Of a stretch of 43,632 bases of DNA, positions 6,746-43,632 are shown piece after piece. The translations under genes and the position numbers were made by a program. The number at the start of each line of letters is the position of its first letter. Position 1 is the first letter of the stretch. The notes below the pieces were generated by a model. It saw only the letters and a program-made list of their open reading frames with translations, searched no databases and had not been told where the DNA came from. The stretch is from Catajapyx aquilonaris (Eukaryota): assembly GCA_000934665.2 (NCBI GenBank), contig JYFJ02000541.1, forward strand, positions 124,001 through 167,632, given 5' to 3'.

Positions 6746-6817
<72 letters not shown>
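6738..6817. repeat. (AG)n microsatellite
   Basis: About 80 nt of AG repeat with one interruption; it explains the ERERE/LSLS ORFs. Confidence 0.98.
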
Positions 6818-6818
<1 letters not shown>

Positions 6819-7064
6819 AATTTCACCGCCCACGCCTGCATTGAAAATGAGTCTGGAGAGATTAGCAACATGCTGTACCCCTGTGCTCTACTATAGATAG
6901 TAATCAAGGATCTGTTTTGAGAACCGCTTAAGATCCTAATTTGGACTATGTGTCTCAGTTTTGGGGGAGCTCATTTGGGTCTAATGAGTGTAGTGGTCAC
7001 ATTGTGTTTGGGTGCTGCAGGTGCTTCTTGAAGAGTTTGAGTCAAAGCCGTTGAATTTATATGG

Positions 7065-16839: not shown

Positions 16840-17911
16840 ATTCGAACTAAGTTTTTTTGGCAGATTGTACTGTACAGTGTACGCACGTGGGCGTAGATTT
16901 TTTTCCCCATTCATAATCGACCTGTTTGTTAATAGCGTTACTCGTGTTATAGGTCACACGATTAGGATAATGAGGTTTCTGCGCATAAATGCGATGCTCT
17001 CAAAGGCTACTTCTCTGGAAACTTGTATGGTAATTGCAACTGTAAATTGCAGTGTTCAAAATCGACGCAAAATCGTGAATTTGTAATGTTACTTGCCAAG
17101 CTTTTGAAGGTGCTGCTTTGTTACATGATGTGCATGTGGTAACGAAAATTCAAATCGCGACCAAGGGGCGGAATCAATTATTAATTATTGTTAAACAATT
17201 ATGCATCACATCTCTTAATTATTACAACTTTGCCAAGAGAAATCTGCATTATCTATATTATTAATACCCGGCTGTTCCCACAACTCCTCCCGCACCGTAC
17301 ACCTACAGCATTGCGAATGGTGTCAAAATTTAGCCCGCGTTTTCTATATTTGCAATAAACTTTTGTTTTTTGAAAATAATGGTCAGGGAATTTATACAAC
17401 ACAAAAAAACGCCGACAGCCTCAAAAAAAACCTGCCCGAAACCTTTCCACGGAATTCCCATTTCTATCGTTCCGGGCACGGGGCGCCACCTCCTGAGTGA
17501 CGACTCGCTTACTTTTGCACCGTCTTCGGCATTTCACCGTCGGATGTCGCTGCCTGGTCCGCCCCCCCCCTCTCTCTCTCTCTCCACTTTCGCATTTTTT
17601 GCCAAATTTTGGCAAGTTGGTGCCTAGTCTGTAATTAAAATCCTTCATTGTATGTCCGAGGTTTCTGATTGGCCCGCCCTATATTGTTTGCGCGACGCTT
17701 CCGATTGGTCCCCGTTCTGCGCCTGCGCAGTGGGGGGGGGGGGTAGGCAGCGCCTCTGGTGGATGGAACTAGTGTAGGCTATAACTTTGCAACCAAATAT
17801 GTGACTGAAAGTGCTCAGACGAAGCTTATTCACTCTGGCAGCAATCTCCTTCCAGAGATTAAACCCGTTTAATCACGATGATGGCTGCTGTGGTGATATA
17901 ACGCCTTACTT

Positions 17912-17916
17912 AGAGA

Positions 17917-17960
<44 letters not shown>
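17912..17960. repeat. (AG)n microsatellite
   Basis: Read directly from the sequence. Confidence 0.97.
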
Positions 17961-26050: not shown

Positions 26051-26163
26051 GGGCCCTTTCAGCCTGGTTAGACGCTGCGTCCACAGGCAAACTGGCCAGC
26101 AATTCGCGGTCAAGATTGTGGACGTGGCCAAGTTCACCTCTAGTCCTGGCCTTAGTACGGACG
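26051..26163 (+). CDS. CASK: CASK coding exon 2 (113 nt; Gly-rich loop and AVK lysine)
   Basis: Acceptor ttttgttccacag|G, donor ACG|gtacgt; encodes [37 protein letters not shown]; phase 2 to 1. Confidence 0.96.
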
Positions 26164-26168
26164 GTACG

Positions 26169-26170
<2 letters not shown>

Positions 26171-26240
<70 letters not shown>
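26171..26240. repeat. (TAA)23 microsatellite
   Basis: 70 nt perfect repeat starting at position +8 of the intron after exon 2. Confidence 0.98.
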
Positions 26241-27840: not shown

Positions 27841-29447
27841 TTGTATTATTAACTAGGTTGAAACTTTTTCTGAATGCTTTTAAAATATTTTTTAGGTGTA
27901 CCCCATGATAGAGCCCAAGGCCCTCTTGGGGTGGGGGTGGGGGGGGGGGTGGAATACCACCATAAGGTGACTGGGAGGGGATGTGCAACATGCAAGTGCA
28001 ATGTCGTTGCTTGATCATTTTGTGAACTCCCCTGGGTCGAGTCGTTTAGTGGAGATTCCACCCGAGACGAAGCCAGAGATGGCCAAACTCTGCACAAGAT
28101 GAAGGGGGGAACCCCGGGCTGAGATTTCGTGGGTGCATACGTTACCGCAGCATCACTCCGTCTCCCCTTAATGCTGTTAATCCCAAGATTGTTGTTTGAG
28201 AATGTGTTCTACATCCTGAGTGGATGTAACAAATAGAAACAAATTGCCACGAATGTTTTTATCACAATTATGCAAAGTTTGTAGCGCGTTATCGAAAAAT
28301 TCCAGGGCTCTTTTAATTCCATTTCTGGGAACGTGTTGACAACATCAACGTTTTTCTGTGACGTTCCCAATTTTTTTTCCCTCCAGTCTTCTTTCATCTT
28401 CCAATGTCATATATGCTGCTCTTCTGAAATGGGTTTTATAGAGATCTAGACCACCTCAGGGCCTTGATGTTTAGTTTCTCGACGCTGCACAGCTGCCTAG
28501 CCTTTCCAATCAGCAGCTGACAGTAAGTGATCTGGGGAGTCGAGAGATGAAATTCACTTGAGCAAGTTCAACAAGTTAGGCGCTTCATGGGAGACTGGGG
28601 AAAGGCAACGGTGCCACCTTTGCGAGTCACGATGGTAATTTCCCAACGGTTTTTTCCAGGGGGAGAAAACAGCAGTGCAGGTGAAGTACTGCTATTGAAT
28701 TACTCCTGGAGCAATTTTTTCTGATTAATCCTGTCCTTGGGTGGTGCAGATGGCACTCTTTTTCAGGTTTAGAGGTATAGGTTGTGGGTGACATTTAGGG
28801 CTGAAGGTGAGGCCTGGGATTAAGTTCTTGGAGTGGGTTGGTTCCTCCTGTGTATAATATAACAAAAATATAACAATGAGAAAATGATAAGCTAAATATG
28901 CAACATACGTTGCTCGTATGTTGGCATTGCAATGCGGCAGGAGGAGAGCATGTAATGAAGCATGACATAGTGAAAGCTGAGATTGCATAATAATTACTCT
29001 TGCATTATTCACTGAGTAAAGAATACTGGATGATCTCAGTAAGCACCTGTTACGTGGAAGTCAGAAGAGTACAGTGCAAACAATATATAATTTGTGGAAG
29101 CTGTGTTGATTTTTGTTCCTGAGTTGGTGTCTTGGGATAGGAGAGGGAAGTCTACTTTGTAATGCAGGAAATGTGCTAGTTACTGCGCCATGCACACAGG
29201 GGAAATCCGATTAGGGAAAAGTGATAGTATTAAATTTTAGCCGATGTTGTCATTAACACCAAAGTTCATTGTAATATTCTTGTTACGAGCTATTGTAAGG
29301 CACATGAAAGTGAACTGTTGTATGTGGGCTTGCCCATATTGTAAACAAATTGAAAGGGTGAGATTATGCCATACTTTCATTTGCTGTGAATATTTGTTTA
29401 AAACTGTCAGTGTAGTTAAACAGTAGTAATTACTTGGCCTTACTTGA

Positions 29448-29584
<137 letters not shown>

Positions 29585-29641
29585 GTAAGTACACAGACTT
29601 GACCTGTGCCAACCAACTCCCATGAGTAACACCCTCAGTAA

Positions 29642-29740
<99 letters not shown>

Positions 29741-29795
29741 TAAGATGAGATGGTCTGCAGTGTACCTGAGTAACTCATCACTACTTTATTTGCAG

Positions 29796-29971
29796 CCACT
29801 ACATGCGGCAGATTCTGGAGGCATTGCGATACTGCCATGACAATGATATAATCCATCGCGACATCAAGCCTCACTGTGTGCTGCTGGCGTCAAGGGAGAA
29901 CTCGGCACCAGTCAAGTTGGGTGGCTTCGGAGTGGCCATCCAGCTGCAAGGCGGACAGCTGATCAATGGAG
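29796..29971 (+). CDS. CASK: CASK coding exon 5 (176 nt; catalytic loop HRDIKPHC and GFG motif)
   Basis: tttatttgcag|C ... GGAG|gtgtgc; [58 protein letters not shown]. Confidence 0.96.
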
Positions 29972-30568
29972 GTGTGCAAGATACGGCTTCTGGTGTGACA
30001 CATTTAGGTGCAGATGAGTGAGGGAGATTGGGCAGGTTCACTAATGGCGCTTTTCTTGGCTGAAATGGGTTTTCCCCCAGGCACAAGGATCAAAATGCAC
30101 CTTTTTGTCACTCCTTCAATGTTTGTGTTGCACGGCTGTTTTGTGTTGGTTTCACCTTTGTATACTAAAGTGGCCTCCTTGGTGACAAGATACATTTTCG
30201 TGGGTTTTTTAAAACTTCAGGCAAAATGGATAAGTGTTGAATTTAAAATATGTCCATGAATGTTTATTACATGACCTGAAGTGCACAAAATTGATTTAAT
30301 AATAGTATTTTGAAAATCCAGTTCTGAATAGTAATTACAGCAGCATCAGCTGTTAATTGTGGAAACCCACGATAATGTTGACAATTGGTATGGATGAAGT
30401 TTATGTTGTATATGCTTTGTGACAAGGTTGGGTGCAGGTTATAATCCTTGATTACATAAATTGACTGCATGAGGAGTCTCATTTAATATTTTATTTTGCA
30501 TGAATTCCAGCTACTGAGCTTTTATTTTCTTGGCTGCAGCACACTTTTTTGTTTCTTCCCACCTGCAG

Positions 30569-30634
30569 AGAAAGTAGACTTGCTGCCAGTGTTGAACACA
30601 AATGGACGCCTCTATCTGAAGGAGGATCCAGAGG
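30569..30634 (+). CDS. CASK: Candidate alternative cassette exon of CASK (66 nt, +22 aa EKVDLLPVLNTNGRLYLKEDPE)
   Basis: Long pyrimidine tract cttttttgtttcttcccacctgcag|AG, donor GAGG|gtaagg. Length is 3n and it is stop-free in the phase-1 frame of the host intron. No homology or transcript support is available here. Confidence 0.6.
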
Positions 30635-31513
30635 GTAAGGGGATTCAGAGAGATAACAATTGAAAGATATTATTCATATAAATGCACCATGGTGTCCAGT
30701 GGAAGCATGGGAAAGAAGATCTCAGTGTTTGATCAGTTGATATTTGGTTCTTGCCTGTTGACACAGTGTTTTAAGTTGACCTGTTATTTGTAATGATGAC
30801 AATGTCAGGGAGGCTTCACATGTACAATGTAATGTAATGTATGGTAATGTAATGTAATGCGGTAACATCATGAAAATTTTATTTGAAATTTGATTAGAAC
30901 ATTTTAGAACTTGTTGCTCTCTAATTAGATTCATTATCCATTATTTCTGCATTTTCCTCTCTTCAATACATGATTTGATGCACACCTACTGAAACCTTTG
31001 TATAAGAGTAGAGCAAAATCTTGTCTGTTACAGAGTTGTGTTTGATTTCGATTTAGGAAATTTAATTCACAAGTATGTTTATTATATAAAGTGGAAACCT
31101 GACCACTATGATAAATTTTTGTGGAATGGAGTGACTCTATTATACTACTGTAGATAGATTTCACTGTATTTAGTGTTGAAAAAACACAGCTTCTTGGTTT
31201 GTTGTACTAGCAGTTGTCAAGTTGGGTGGAAGAGGGAGTGTGTGAATGTGTGAATGAAGTCTCCAAACCTTGTTCAATTAACATAAATGACAGGATAATT
31301 TATTCACACCAGTATATTGATTCTTGAGTTTTAAAACTTATTGTCGGCCATTTTTGGTTTATAGTTGCTTGTTTTTGAAGCTATATTTTAATTCATATGG
31401 TATCAGTTGCAGAAAATATGCAATGCAGGCAAAGCTTGGTCACACCCTGAGAATAATCTTTGACAAGGTTAACAACTAGGAACAAAATCAGTATACACGC
31501 TGTTAATTTTCAG

Positions 31514-31689
31514 GGCGTGTGGGGACCCCACATTTTATGGCGCCCGAAGTGGTCAAACGTCAGCCTTATGGGAAACCAGCTGACATTTGGTCAGCAGGAG
31601 TTCTGCTCCACATCATGCTGTCGGGCACACTGCCTTTCCTGGGGACCAAAGAGTGGCTTTACGAAAGCATCTGCCGAGGGAAGCTCTAT
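31514..31689 (+). CDS. CASK: CASK coding exon 6 (176 nt; APE motif)
   Basis: aattttcag|GG ... TAT|gtgagt; GRVGTPHFMAPEVVKRQPYGKPADIWSAGVLLHIMLSGTLPFLGTKEWLYESICRGKLY. Confidence 0.97.
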
Positions 31690-31767
31690 GTGAGTATCAC
31701 AGAGGAGCCAAGGAGCACTGCTTGCTGGTGCAGTAATTTTGTCATGTTGGAACATATGCACTTTCAG

Positions 31768-31890
31768 CTTCAAACTCAGCAGTGGCAAAGCATCAGTGAC
31801 CATGCCAAAGACCTCCTGATGCATATGCTCGCCGTCAATCCTGAAGATCGTCTCAACATACATGAAACTTTGAGCCATCGATGGCTTATG
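31768..31890 (+). CDS. CASK: CASK coding exon 7 (123 nt)
   Basis: cactttcag|CTT ... ATG|gtatgt; LQTQQWQSISDHAKDLLMHMLAVNPEDRLNIHETLSHRWLM. Confidence 0.95.
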
Positions 31891-32483
31891 GTATGTGAGG
31901 TGACCATAGTATCAGCTAAAAATTGGGTGGAAAACTGGGTCTTGAGAGGATCTTTTTCTTTTATGCCTTAAGTTTCTGCATCCTGTTTGTCACCTTCGCT
32001 TTACAAGGATATTTATATAGACATGCCTTGCTAATAGTTTCACCTTGAATGGATTTGTAGGGATTTTTTCTGTTAAAAGGGGCTTGTCATGTAGAAGTTC
32101 ATCCTTCAAGGTGTGAGAGAGCATCTAAGGGTGCTTCAGGGACATGCCAGAAATCTAAATGTATCGCCGAAAATTCTCTTGCTTGGTTGGTCAAAAATTG
32201 CCCATAATGGATACAAGTTTTGAAATAAGCTCCAGATGTATGGGATAGTACCAATTAAGATTTGTAGAGTGCCTAATGTCCTTATGGGCTATGTTCCGTC
32301 TTTAGTTGACACTGTCAAGCACCCAGGTCACCGAAAAATTTCAGCTAAACCATCAAAATAAGCATTCTGCAAGGTCCCCACTCACTTGGTGCAACCTGGG
32401 TGGATTGGCCCTTTTTTTCACCCAAGCACTCAAATGTGAATGTCAAATGTTGTGCAGAGTACTGATTGGCACTTGACTTTCAG

Positions 32484-32670
32484 GACAGGGACAAGACTGC
32501 TCCTAAAGCCCACCTGCATGACACTGTAGATGAGATGCGAAAGTTTAATGCCAGGAGAAAACTGAAAGGAGCAGTTCTTGCTGCTGTTTCATCGCCAAAG
32601 TGGACTGCCTTCTATTCAGATCCAAGTGATGGATTTTCCGACTTTGGAGATGATGAAGTTACCTCCTCGG
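32484..32670 (+). CDS. CASK: CASK coding exon 8 (187 nt; regulatory/calmodulin-binding segment)
   Basis: gactttcag|GAC ... TCGG|gtgagt; DRDKTAPKAHLHDTVDEMRKFNARRKLKGAVLAAVSSPKWTAFYSDPSDGFSDFGDDEVTSS. Confidence 0.97.
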
Positions 32671-33121
32671 GTGAGTAGCGTTAATTGGTGAATTTTTTCC
32701 AGTGTTGTGGCATGGAAACAAGTTAATTTACGAGTAGATTTTTTCCCCCTACTTACTTTGAACCATTCAGAGGAAAAATGTTTTTAGTGAAGAAATCTTC
32801 CATTATGTGCAATGTTGTGTTTTTTTTTTCCAGAGTAGGCAGAAACAACATGTGGTATTGCATTGAAAATGTTGTTTATTGAATAAGGCCTGTTCATGAA
32901 ATGCATCATTCATAACAGAGTCAGTGACTTGAGAGAAGGATGCAGGGCATATTTGTTCAGTTGTGTTTATTTGACGTTAAGCTTGTGGAATAATTGCATT
33001 TTTGCTGTATGCCTACAGTATGCGAATATTTATTTATCATATTATGTCTGTGGAAGCAGTGAATCACAAGTTGTCATTTTATAGAGGGACTTAAATTCCA
33101 CATTCACAACGTTGAATACTA

Positions 33122-41125: not shown

Positions 41126-41247
41126 GAGCAGTCAGCGTAGTGCTGGACAGCCTCGACGACATTCACTGCCTTCAGGAAGCTCCCCGAAAGGACCGAGACT
41201 TTCTGCAATCCGTGCTCGAGGACAACCAGCTTCATGCACTGCTCGAT
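41126..41247 (+). CDS. CASK: CASK coding exon 9 (122 nt; start of first L27 domain)
   Basis: cttttgttcaag|GA ... GAT|gtaagt; GAVSVVLDSLDDIHCLQEAPRKDRDFLQSVLEDNQLHALLD; phase 1 matches exon 8. Confidence 0.95.
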
Positions 41248-42953
41248 GTAAGTACCCTTTACCCTTGTTTGCTCACCCTCTTCAGTCCATTTTCAAGCAG
41301 CTATTAATTTAGATGTCGCTCAATGTAAGAGTGGCCGTCCCTTGTCATACTGAAGGACATTACTCTGTGCATGTTTATCAGGGTCATTGACCTTGTCTTG
41401 TGCACACATTAATAGAGTAATTTGTCCCACTTGAGATCTGCCTTGAGGGCGGCTAATTCTAAAGCGCTGCAGTTGAACCCTGAACTTCAGTCACTGCGAC
41501 ACTTGTTGAGGTGAATCACACCAGTCCAGTGCTCTCTGTAATCATCGGGGAGCGTTTTGTCATGTTTCAGAAGTCAATTTGCAAGGTAATTGTATATCAT
41601 TGAAAGCTGATTCATTATACAGTCTTAGGCAGCAAGCCAGAGCAGGTAGGGGGTAACTCCATGCCGGATTATAACCCCCACAGATTCAAGGAAATTATTG
41701 ATGCATAACGTGGAGAAAGGTAGCCTAATTAATGACCTCCCATAATGAGCTGCATAATTTTTTAATTGAGTCAGCCCCCTTCCAACTGAATTTTGCTGAG
41801 CAGTGTAATTTGTATGATTATGAAGTGGGAGATTAACTATTTTGATGATGGTGCAACTTGGAGGGCTTGACCAATTCGCATCACCGCCTTGATTTAATTA
41901 CTTCCCGTGGTGTACAAAATTATGCTTTACGTGCTCTGGCAGCAGGAAGGGAGTAAAAAGCGTAATCACCAAGAGTGACTTAAACTCCAGTTTTGCCTAT
42001 CCCTTTTTATAAAACCGATGTTCATCACCGCCTGATTTTTAGGATTAACAGAATGCCTTTTTTTCCACTTTGATCACTTTCAGCTAACAGCTTGAAAGCC
42101 AGTAGGTTAATAACAGTGTGAAACAAAAGTTGCCCTGAAGGGATGGAATAGGGAAGCAGTCATTATGTACACCATAACGGAATATTTCAATTCCGCTCCA
42201 TTAATTGCATGCATGAGTATGAATTGAGTGCCATCAAGCCGAAGCCTCTTCCGTGTGCTCCGGCATAATCGAACCCCGAGGCTTACCTGCAGGGACACAA
42301 CTTTGGAGGCCAAATTTTGGCACTGTAATCTGCATGTGTTTTATGAGATTTGATGTTGAATTAAGATTTTGGTCGTGCTATAGCATATGTTATTTATTTG
42401 TTTGTTTGTCTGTGTGTTACTTATGTAAAGGCGCCCTCTCACGGTGCCGTCGTTTAACTTGTCTTGGCGCGAAATTGATTCCAAATGTTTCACTCCCGAC
42501 TGGCTTACCTGACAGAAATTATATTTGGCGCCATCCCTAAGTGACTCGACTCCATTACAGCCGTGATTTACACCTGCATTAGAATTTTCTTGGTCAAACT
42601 ATAGCCTGAATATTCAAGGTGGAACGGTTTTCTTTGTATGCTCCGGAAGGGAAAGTCTGAAATATGAGCTTTGTGGGAATGGGTGTTTTCTCACTCTCTG
42701 ATTGATGAGACAAGCTGTTGAGATAGGTAATGGTGATATTTCGAGCTAGTAACTAGACGAATAGCGGCGAAGTCCCCCACTCCTCAAGTTCCCCAACCAT
42801 TCTTTCTTATATTCCCGGCTGCTCTCCAAAAGGCGACGAGAAACGGGGGCCCTCCTTCGGTTTTTATGCTCCGCCAACAGAGATGGAACTTAAATTCGTC
42901 GTTTGCTCTGGTCCGGAAGCCGTCTTCGAAAACTTTGGGAAGTTCCAACTTCT

Positions 42954-43137
<184 letters not shown>

Positions 43138-43632
43138 NCCCCCCCCCCAAAAAAAAAAAAAGTTTCTGCCAAATTCTTGAAACGGACCGCACACTTTCTC
43201 GGTATAAATCCCCCAGCTGCTTCGATATTTCGCCGAATTTCACAATATTACTTTTCAGATATACGGAGAAGGTCTGTGCACACGTGATTTTTATTCAAAT
43301 AGTGATCGATATTTTGTAGTTCTGCTGGAATAACTGGGTTAACTTCACAATGTAAATATTCAAGTGTCAATATTGGCAAATATTTTAATTTAAACTGAAT
43401 GACTGCCATTTATTTACCGATACATTTCGTGGAGTGTACTATCACGGTCAAAAAGATTGTCGGACTGTTATGGAATCGTCCGCGACTTTTTCTCCCGCCA
43501 ATCAGTGTGCCAGGTGCAGGTGATTTGGGCGAGTGCCGTCGACAGCTTTCCTCCCGCGACCTGATGACACGTGCTCGAATTTTCATCGGTGGGGGGGAGG
43601 GGGGGGGTGCTGATTAGGCGAGGAAGGGGCGA

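Follow-up and report, generated by a model that had tools for sequence, protein, structure and literature searches.

In Catajapyx aquilonaris, the activation segment of the CASK kinase domain is encoded by two exons, which are separated by an intron of 1542 nt. This intron occupies positions 29972-31513 of the window, by which we mean the whole stretch of 43,632 nucleotides that was analysed. We asked whether a segment of 66 nt inside this intron, at 30569-30634 on the + strand, is a coding exon of CASK, whether it is alternatively included in the mRNA, and what its inclusion would mean for the kinase domain.

The CASK gene and the candidate exon

The 43.6-kb window carries the 5' part of the CASK gene on its + strand; it ends at position 43632, upstream of the exons for the PDZ-SH3-guanylate kinase module of this MAGUK. 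The exons were mapped by tblastn with three CASK proteins (P0007, P0008 and P0042), and their boundaries were then read from the sequence; the numbering follows that of the preliminary description, in which exon 5 is 29796-29971 and exon 6 is 31514-31689. Coding exons were placed in this way at 26051-26163 (lobe of the CaMK-like domain), at 29479-29584 and at 29662-29739. Exon 5 encodes HRDIKP, the catalytic loop, together with the GFG motif, and it ends with …QLING plus one base, that is, in phase 1. Exon 6 starts with GRVGTPHFMAPE and includes the P+1 loop and APE. Downstream of it we find coding exons at 31768-31890 (LQTQQWQSISDHAKDLLMHMLAVNPEDRLNIHETLSHRWLM), at 32484-32670 (the calmodulin-binding or regulatory segment) and at 41126-41247 (AVSVVLDSLDDIHCLQEAP…LHALLD). 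The last of these aligns with the start of the L27 region in P0007, P0008 and P0042 and marks the beginning of the first L27 domain, of which only the first part is within the window. All of these exons are on the + strand.

The gene can be identified as CASK by the sequence GGFGVAIQL in exon 5, in which GFG replaces DFG in a CaMK-like kinase domain. Nearly all named proteins among the 120 matches listed for each of two exon searches (exon 5 and exon 8) are CASK or CASK-like. Among the matches listed, identity reaches 91% in exon 5 and, with Blattella, 85% in exon 8; for the latter exon we see 83% identity with Zootermopsis, 78% with the centipede Strigamia and 72% with Ixodes. The summed tblastn scores are highest for proteins of cockroach, locust and termite, and among solved chains, those of human CASK come nearest to the cockroach orthologue. 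A simple motif search for the first CASK coding exon, with its N-terminal …VYELCE… motif, did not find it on the + strand in window positions 1-26050; this exon may lie upstream of the window, or it may be too diverged for a motif search.

The candidate exon has the following anatomy. Exon 5 closes with the bases …ATC AAT GGA G at 29971 and is followed by the donor gtgtgc (29972-29977). The acceptor of the cassette, cttttttgtttcttcccacctgcag, is a polypyrimidine tract plus cag at 30544-30568, with 14 pyrimidines in the 17 positions from -20 to -4 and its last base at 30568. Then come the 66 nt of the cassette (30569-30634) and the donor gtaagg (30635-30640). Exon 6 begins at 31514 with GG CGT GTG GGG ACC…. 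Read in the required frame, the cassette contains no stop codon and encodes the 22 residues EKVDLLPVLNTNGRLYLKEDPE; a local tblastn match to Periplaneta P0007 covers 30592-30639. Since the length of the cassette is divisible by three and its phase is 1 on both sides, the reading frame is kept, and exons 3-6 joined with the cassette give 201 residues and no stop.

The preliminary description, made from the letters of the sequence, had pointed to a stop-free segment of 66 nt with a good acceptor and a gtaagg donor in a phase-1 intron. Re-reading and recomputation confirmed this. The evidence also supports its reading of a cassette-type exon within the activation segment of CASK's CaMK-like domain; the segment sits in the intron that splits …QLING from GRVGTPHF.

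In a comparison of splice sites among the nine mapped exons, the cassette has the best polypyrimidine tract, and its splice sites are stronger than the sites of the neighbouring exons. The upstream donor gtgtgc, on the other side of the comparison, is the farthest of all from GTRAGT. A weak donor beside strong cassette sites would be compatible with a regulated choice of splice sites and proves nothing.

Apart from the exons, the window offers few features near the cassette. Rfam gave no match at E <= 0.1 in 29400-32700, and a tandem-repeat scan of the cassette intron found only three small repeats; an (AATGT)n microsatellite of 6.8 copies is located at 30826-30859, in the intron downstream of the cassette. 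Elsewhere we note a long AAT-type trinucleotide run at about 26170-26240, in the intron directly 3' of the exon at 26051-26163 (it gives runs of N and I in translation), (GA)n-type dinucleotide repeats at about 6750-6860 and about 17900-17960, which read RERERE… in translation, and, at about 42950-43150, a poly(A)-type run of great length that is interrupted by an N. In total, the window contains 4 N.

Homologous inserts in other CASK proteins

Inserts at the same point are common in CASK proteins of other arthropods. At least 118 of the 314 CASK proteins that were collected carry an insert of 22-25 residues at exactly the cassette point, with the core G-[RQ]-x-Y-L-K-x-D, most of the database isoforms being automatic predictions. 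The taxa include many insect orders, a barnacle, ticks, spiders and the horseshoe crab Limulus. In the search with exon 5, the insert is found in 25 of the 120 matches listed, and 84 are insert-less; in those 25 the stretch from GFG to APE is longer by 21-25 residues or more, and the extra piece is at the junction of exons 5 and 6. For example, the insert reads ECLVSETRPNLSPMGRLYLKADCE in Zootermopsis (P0021), ENLVRESRPGLSPMGRLYYKADRE in Schistocerca (P0005), ESFVSLSRPDLSPSGQLYLKSDRE in isoform X7 of Nilaparvata (P0015) and EPVTMETRPGIGHVARDYFSADKT in the barnacle Pollicipes (P0042). The search with exon 8 adds Ixodes P0126, Amblyomma P0133, Limulus P0137 and P0139, and the unnamed P0129 and P0130.

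We also built a profile from alignment A2, which consists of the insert plus its flanks, and scored it on 8000 candidates. At E <= 0.001 there were 188 matches, and among the best 120 of these 188, which are the ones listed, 87 of the 88 new proteins carry the insert. The new carriers include proteins from a damselfly (Odonata), a stick insect (Phasmatodea), many Hymenoptera, beetles (Coleoptera), moths (Lepidoptera) and four spiders. One of the beetle inserts, that of Leptinotarsa P0271 (X3), is ECLASEYRSDLNTLGRLYLKTDRA, which is very close to …LNTNGRLYLKED… in the window. The window peptide aligns with A2 with a single gap of two residues and has the common residues G, R, L, Y, L, K, D and E. 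Conservation in related species had been named as a check in the preliminary description, and both the peptide and its position are indeed found, by alignment and by profile, in related arthropod CASK proteins.

Within the insert, conservation is uneven. In a set of 47 unique inserts, the upstream half varies apart from an Arg (41/47), a Leu (39/47) and a Ser-Pro pair (Ser 35/47, Pro 33/47), the latter being typical of most insects. The downstream half is strongly conserved, with G in 43 of the 47, Q or R in 44, L in 40 and K in 39, plus Y and D; the invariance of Y and D in these 47 inserts is partly built in, as the regular expression used for collecting them required both. The Y is invariant in the hand-picked alignment A2 as well.

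How does the window peptide compare with this pattern? Ten of its 22 residues are the commonest residue of their column in the 47 inserts. Near its C-terminal end it has G-R-L-Y-L-K-E-D-P-E, which agrees with the motif G-[RQ]-x-Y-[LF]-[KR]-x-D, and at the protein level it is inserted between …[NS]G and GR[IV]G, as in the other taxa. The upstream half is different: in place of R-P-x-L-S-P the window has L-P-V-L-N-T, in which Pro and Leu are kept and Arg and Ser-Pro are absent, and the insert is two residues shorter than most. The same Arg and Ser-Pro are also absent from the inserts of ticks, spiders, Leptinotarsa and the mirid bugs (Nesidiocoris and Lygus). As ticks, spiders and certain beetles and bugs show variation in this upstream half, R-P-x-L-S-P is not strictly defining. 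As judged from the alignments, clear conservation in the window cassette is confined to its C-terminal half.

We refer to the arthropod activation-loop insert, as represented by Zootermopsis P0021, Periplaneta P0007 (X2), Nilaparvata P0015 (X7), Leptinotarsa P0271 (X3) and Ixodes P0126 (X2), as cassette 1. It shares with the window segment the gene, the insertion point …NG/GR[IV]G and the core G-[RQ]-x-Y-L-K-x-D-x-E. The two differ in length (23-25 residues in cassette 1, 22 in the window) and in the Arg and Ser-Pro that the window does without, the other species being compared at the protein level. Very probably, then, 30569-30634 is the orthologue of a known but scarcely studied arthropod CASK insert and not a new discovery; the window appears to add a further orthologue to the set, one whose N-terminal half is shortened and has diverged. 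The exon had been called hidden in the preliminary description. That word does not hold for the family, as automatic annotation has already placed the orthologous insert in many CASK isoforms of arthropods. On the other hand, full-text searches on CASK splicing, isoforms and inserts and on kinase inserts in general listed no description of an activation-loop cassette of arthropod CASK; subscription journals and supplements may differ in this respect.

The insert is absent from all vertebrate CASK proteins among the matches listed that have a readable GFG-to-APE stretch; in these, 14 residues lead from GFGVA to GTP. There is also no dipteran among the A2 matches listed (the best 120 of 188), despite abundant Hymenoptera, Coleoptera and Lepidoptera, and this absence may reflect a loss in flies. 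The accessible parts of PMC10559581 and PMC6025963 do not mention an insert in fly CASK.

Several other variants of the activation loop were seen in the collected proteins. Directly after cassette 1, Hemiptera and Hymenoptera have a second alternative insert, which adjoins it in the activation-loop region and belongs to a different sequence family. In Hemiptera it has 22-23 residues (…LPDLEKIEAAE…; P0003, P0004, P0008, P0018 and P0269), and in wasps, bees and sawflies it has 29-31 residues (…FPFEDLTDAEDSL…; P0277, P0278, P0285-P0294, P0298, P0300 and P0308). Ranatra P0004 has this second insert and no cassette 1. With profiles of the hemipteran and of the hymenopteran second insert, neither the cassette intron nor the rest of the window gave a match; the best E values, 2.9 and 0.42, belong to places outside the intron. 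At the point of cassette 1 itself, we see a 19-residue insert in the nemertean Tubulanus (P0145), whose …SLRED… is faintly like …YLKxD…, a 9-residue insert in krill (P0148) and a divergent 21-residue insert (…ARVFWCAD…) in a mantis shrimp (P0041). Judging by these three, the arthropod set may underestimate the age or the lability of the insertion site or of the exon itself. In bees and Orussus (P0230, P0234-P0268) the GFG motif reads GFS (…KLRGFSVAVQL…).

Origin and use of the exon

Could the cassette be a chance pseudo-exon, that is, an unused AG…GT pair that happens to enclose an open frame and has no relation to the inserts of other arthropods? Taken by itself, its pattern would allow it. 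An open frame of 22 codons is expected by chance in about a third of random segments ((61/64)^22, about 0.35). As a control for the splice sites we counted pairs with at least 14 pyrimidines out of 17, a YAG, a GTRAG 30-300 nt downstream, a length divisible by three and an open phase-1 frame. In the 43.6-kb window there are two such pairs on the + strand, one of them the cassette, and one on the - strand, which gives a rate of about 0.03 per kb and an expectation of about 0.05 per 1.5-kb intron. The combination of splice sites and frame can therefore be called mildly unusual, which is suggestive, not decisive.

What places the cassette far above chance is the homology of the encoded peptide to arthropod CASK inserts. 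With a profile of 19 inserts, the cassette ORF ranks first among the six-frame ORFs of the window (E 0.029, next match 0.13). With the profile of 47 inserts it is again first of 1911 ORFs, at E 0.0062 and with 13.0 bits, a score that is modest taken alone and that compares with 6.5 bits for the next match. Not one of 1000 mononucleotide shuffles of the intron reaches 13.0 bits in any forward frame. Moreover, the match is found in the one intron, strand and frame that are expected for an orthologous insert. From the profile statistics together with this location we conclude that a chance origin can be dismissed for practical purposes, and give it next to no weight.

We then have to ask whether the exon is used as an alternative one. 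The annotations of four species contain the two forms side by side. In Zootermopsis the insert is present in P0021 and absent from P0022; in Homalodisca P0016 and P0020 have it and P0019 does not; in Daktulosphaira it is found in P0052-57 and not in P0051; and in Ixodes P0126 has it and P0127 lacks it. Going by these annotated sequences, the insert is an alternative cassette in the four species. In addition, there are full-length proteins with the insert that come from short contigs, namely P0013 (920 residues, contig of 3739 nt), P0024 (918 residues, 3322 nt) and P0130 (910 residues, 3563 nt), and likewise insert-less ones, P0017 (897 residues, 5226 nt) and P0125 (893 residues, 5379 nt). These five contigs are too short to hold introns and are therefore assembled spliced transcripts.

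The best explanation, which we consider likely, is that 30569-30634 is a real, conserved coding exon of CASK that is alternatively included. In Catajapyx it would be an ancient exon of this kind, whose alternative inclusion is extrapolated from the relatives. A constitutive or nearly constitutive orthologous exon in this species would agree with the finding that the splice sites of the cassette are stronger than those of its neighbours, and several species have only insert-bearing models among the matches listed (for example, Schistocerca P0005 and Periplaneta P0007). However, both forms are annotated in four species across insects and ticks, and the relatives' insert-less full-length proteins P0017 and P0125 stem from short, intron-free contigs, so constitutive use here seems to us improbable. 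It is also conceivable that the cassette is a relic, an ancestral exon that is no longer spliced into the mRNA and whose frame and sites persist because the loss was recent. The diverged N-terminal half, with its missing Arg and Ser-Pro and two residues fewer, could be read in this way. Against a relic speak the two near-consensus splice sites, the intact frame and the core G-R-L-Y-L-K-x-D-x-E, which is fully kept; what is more, Ser-Pro is lacking also in the expressed or annotated inserts of Leptinotarsa, Nesidiocoris and Lygus, ticks and spiders. We hold a relic to be very improbable.

Position in the fold and possible consequences

Relative to chain 6lnm_A of human CASK, the insertion point is between positions 183 and 184, directly before GRVGTPHFMAPE, which is the P+1 loop. 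In protein kinases, the P+1 loop shapes the site for the peptide substrate. An AlphaFold2 model was calculated for Periplaneta P0007 from alignment A3, which has 60 sequences and is enriched for insert-bearing ones. The mean pLDDT of this model is 74 and its pTM is 0.74, and the other four models reach a mean pLDDT of 57.6-70.9, which is medium quality. The insert of P0007 comprises residues 178-201. At its start confidence is low, with pLDDT below 50 for residues 173-181, and the block means then rise from 66 (181-190) to 81 (191-200) and 85 (201-210). Residues 190-196 (P-M-G-Q-L-Y-L), in the conserved half of the insert, are predicted to form a short helix. The model thus agrees with the pattern of conservation and gives weak evidence that the C-terminal half of the insert may be a structured element.

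When spliced in, the cassette would add 22 residues to the CaMK-like domain, at the tip of its activation loop. Its conserved G-R/Q-x-Y-L-K-x-D half would adjoin the P+1 and peptide-substrate site, and inclusion would then tune substrate access or catalysis of the atypical kinase. Alternatively, the insert could provide a regulated contact or a phosphosite, for which the conserved Tyr and, in insects, the Ser-Pro would be candidates. A different target that comes to mind is the C-lobe pocket formed by V117, H120 and Y121, which binds Trp-containing peptides of Caskin1, Mint1, Tiam1 and liprin-alpha, according to the accessible part of 10.1101/2022.01.16.476467. These three residues are invariant in alignment A3. 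An effect of the insert on the pocket for Mint1, Caskin and liprin-alpha appears less likely than one on the P+1 site, as nothing computed places the insert there.

Going further, we tentatively propose a pan-arthropod switch that is older than the split between chelicerates and Pancrustacea. In such a switch, a helix-forming Y-L-K-x-D segment by the P+1 loop of a Mg2+-independent kinase would toggle substrate access or catalytic competence, or would add a Tyr or Ser-Pro phosphosite. This is a possible reading about which we have more doubt than confidence.

Splicing that puts a short peptide into a kinase domain has a parallel in the kinase-insert isoforms of TrkC (NTRK3), in which the inserts are located in the activation loop. 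TrkC is an unrelated receptor tyrosine kinase, and the parallel is a functional analogy only; its inserts change substrate specificity and signalling, as far as the accessible text of PMC6859819 reports. The alternative exons of human CASK are similar to the cassette in another way, as they are in-frame coding segments that tune protein interactions; exon 11, for example, lowers binding to SAP97 (PMC8208546, accessible part). Unlike the arthropod cassette, however, every human exon described there (11, 19, 20 and 23L) codes for a linker between domains and lies outside the CaMK domain. This agrees with the preliminary description, according to which such an insert is not known in human CASK, within what the accessible part of that source covers.

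For the genome of Catajapyx, the practical value of the result is in annotation: a gene model without 30569-30634 would miss an isoform. For the family, it is of interest that the core motif of the exon has been retained in horseshoe crab and ticks as well as in beetles, bees and moths. At the presynapse, CASK serves as a key scaffold, and the kinase activity of its CaMK-like domain has long been argued about. If the proposed switch is true, the two main model systems for CASK would have missed a whole regulatory layer of a debated kinase or pseudokinase. An exon that lengthens the loop beside the P+1 loop would offer a natural handle for testing the role of the CaMK-like domain in invertebrates.
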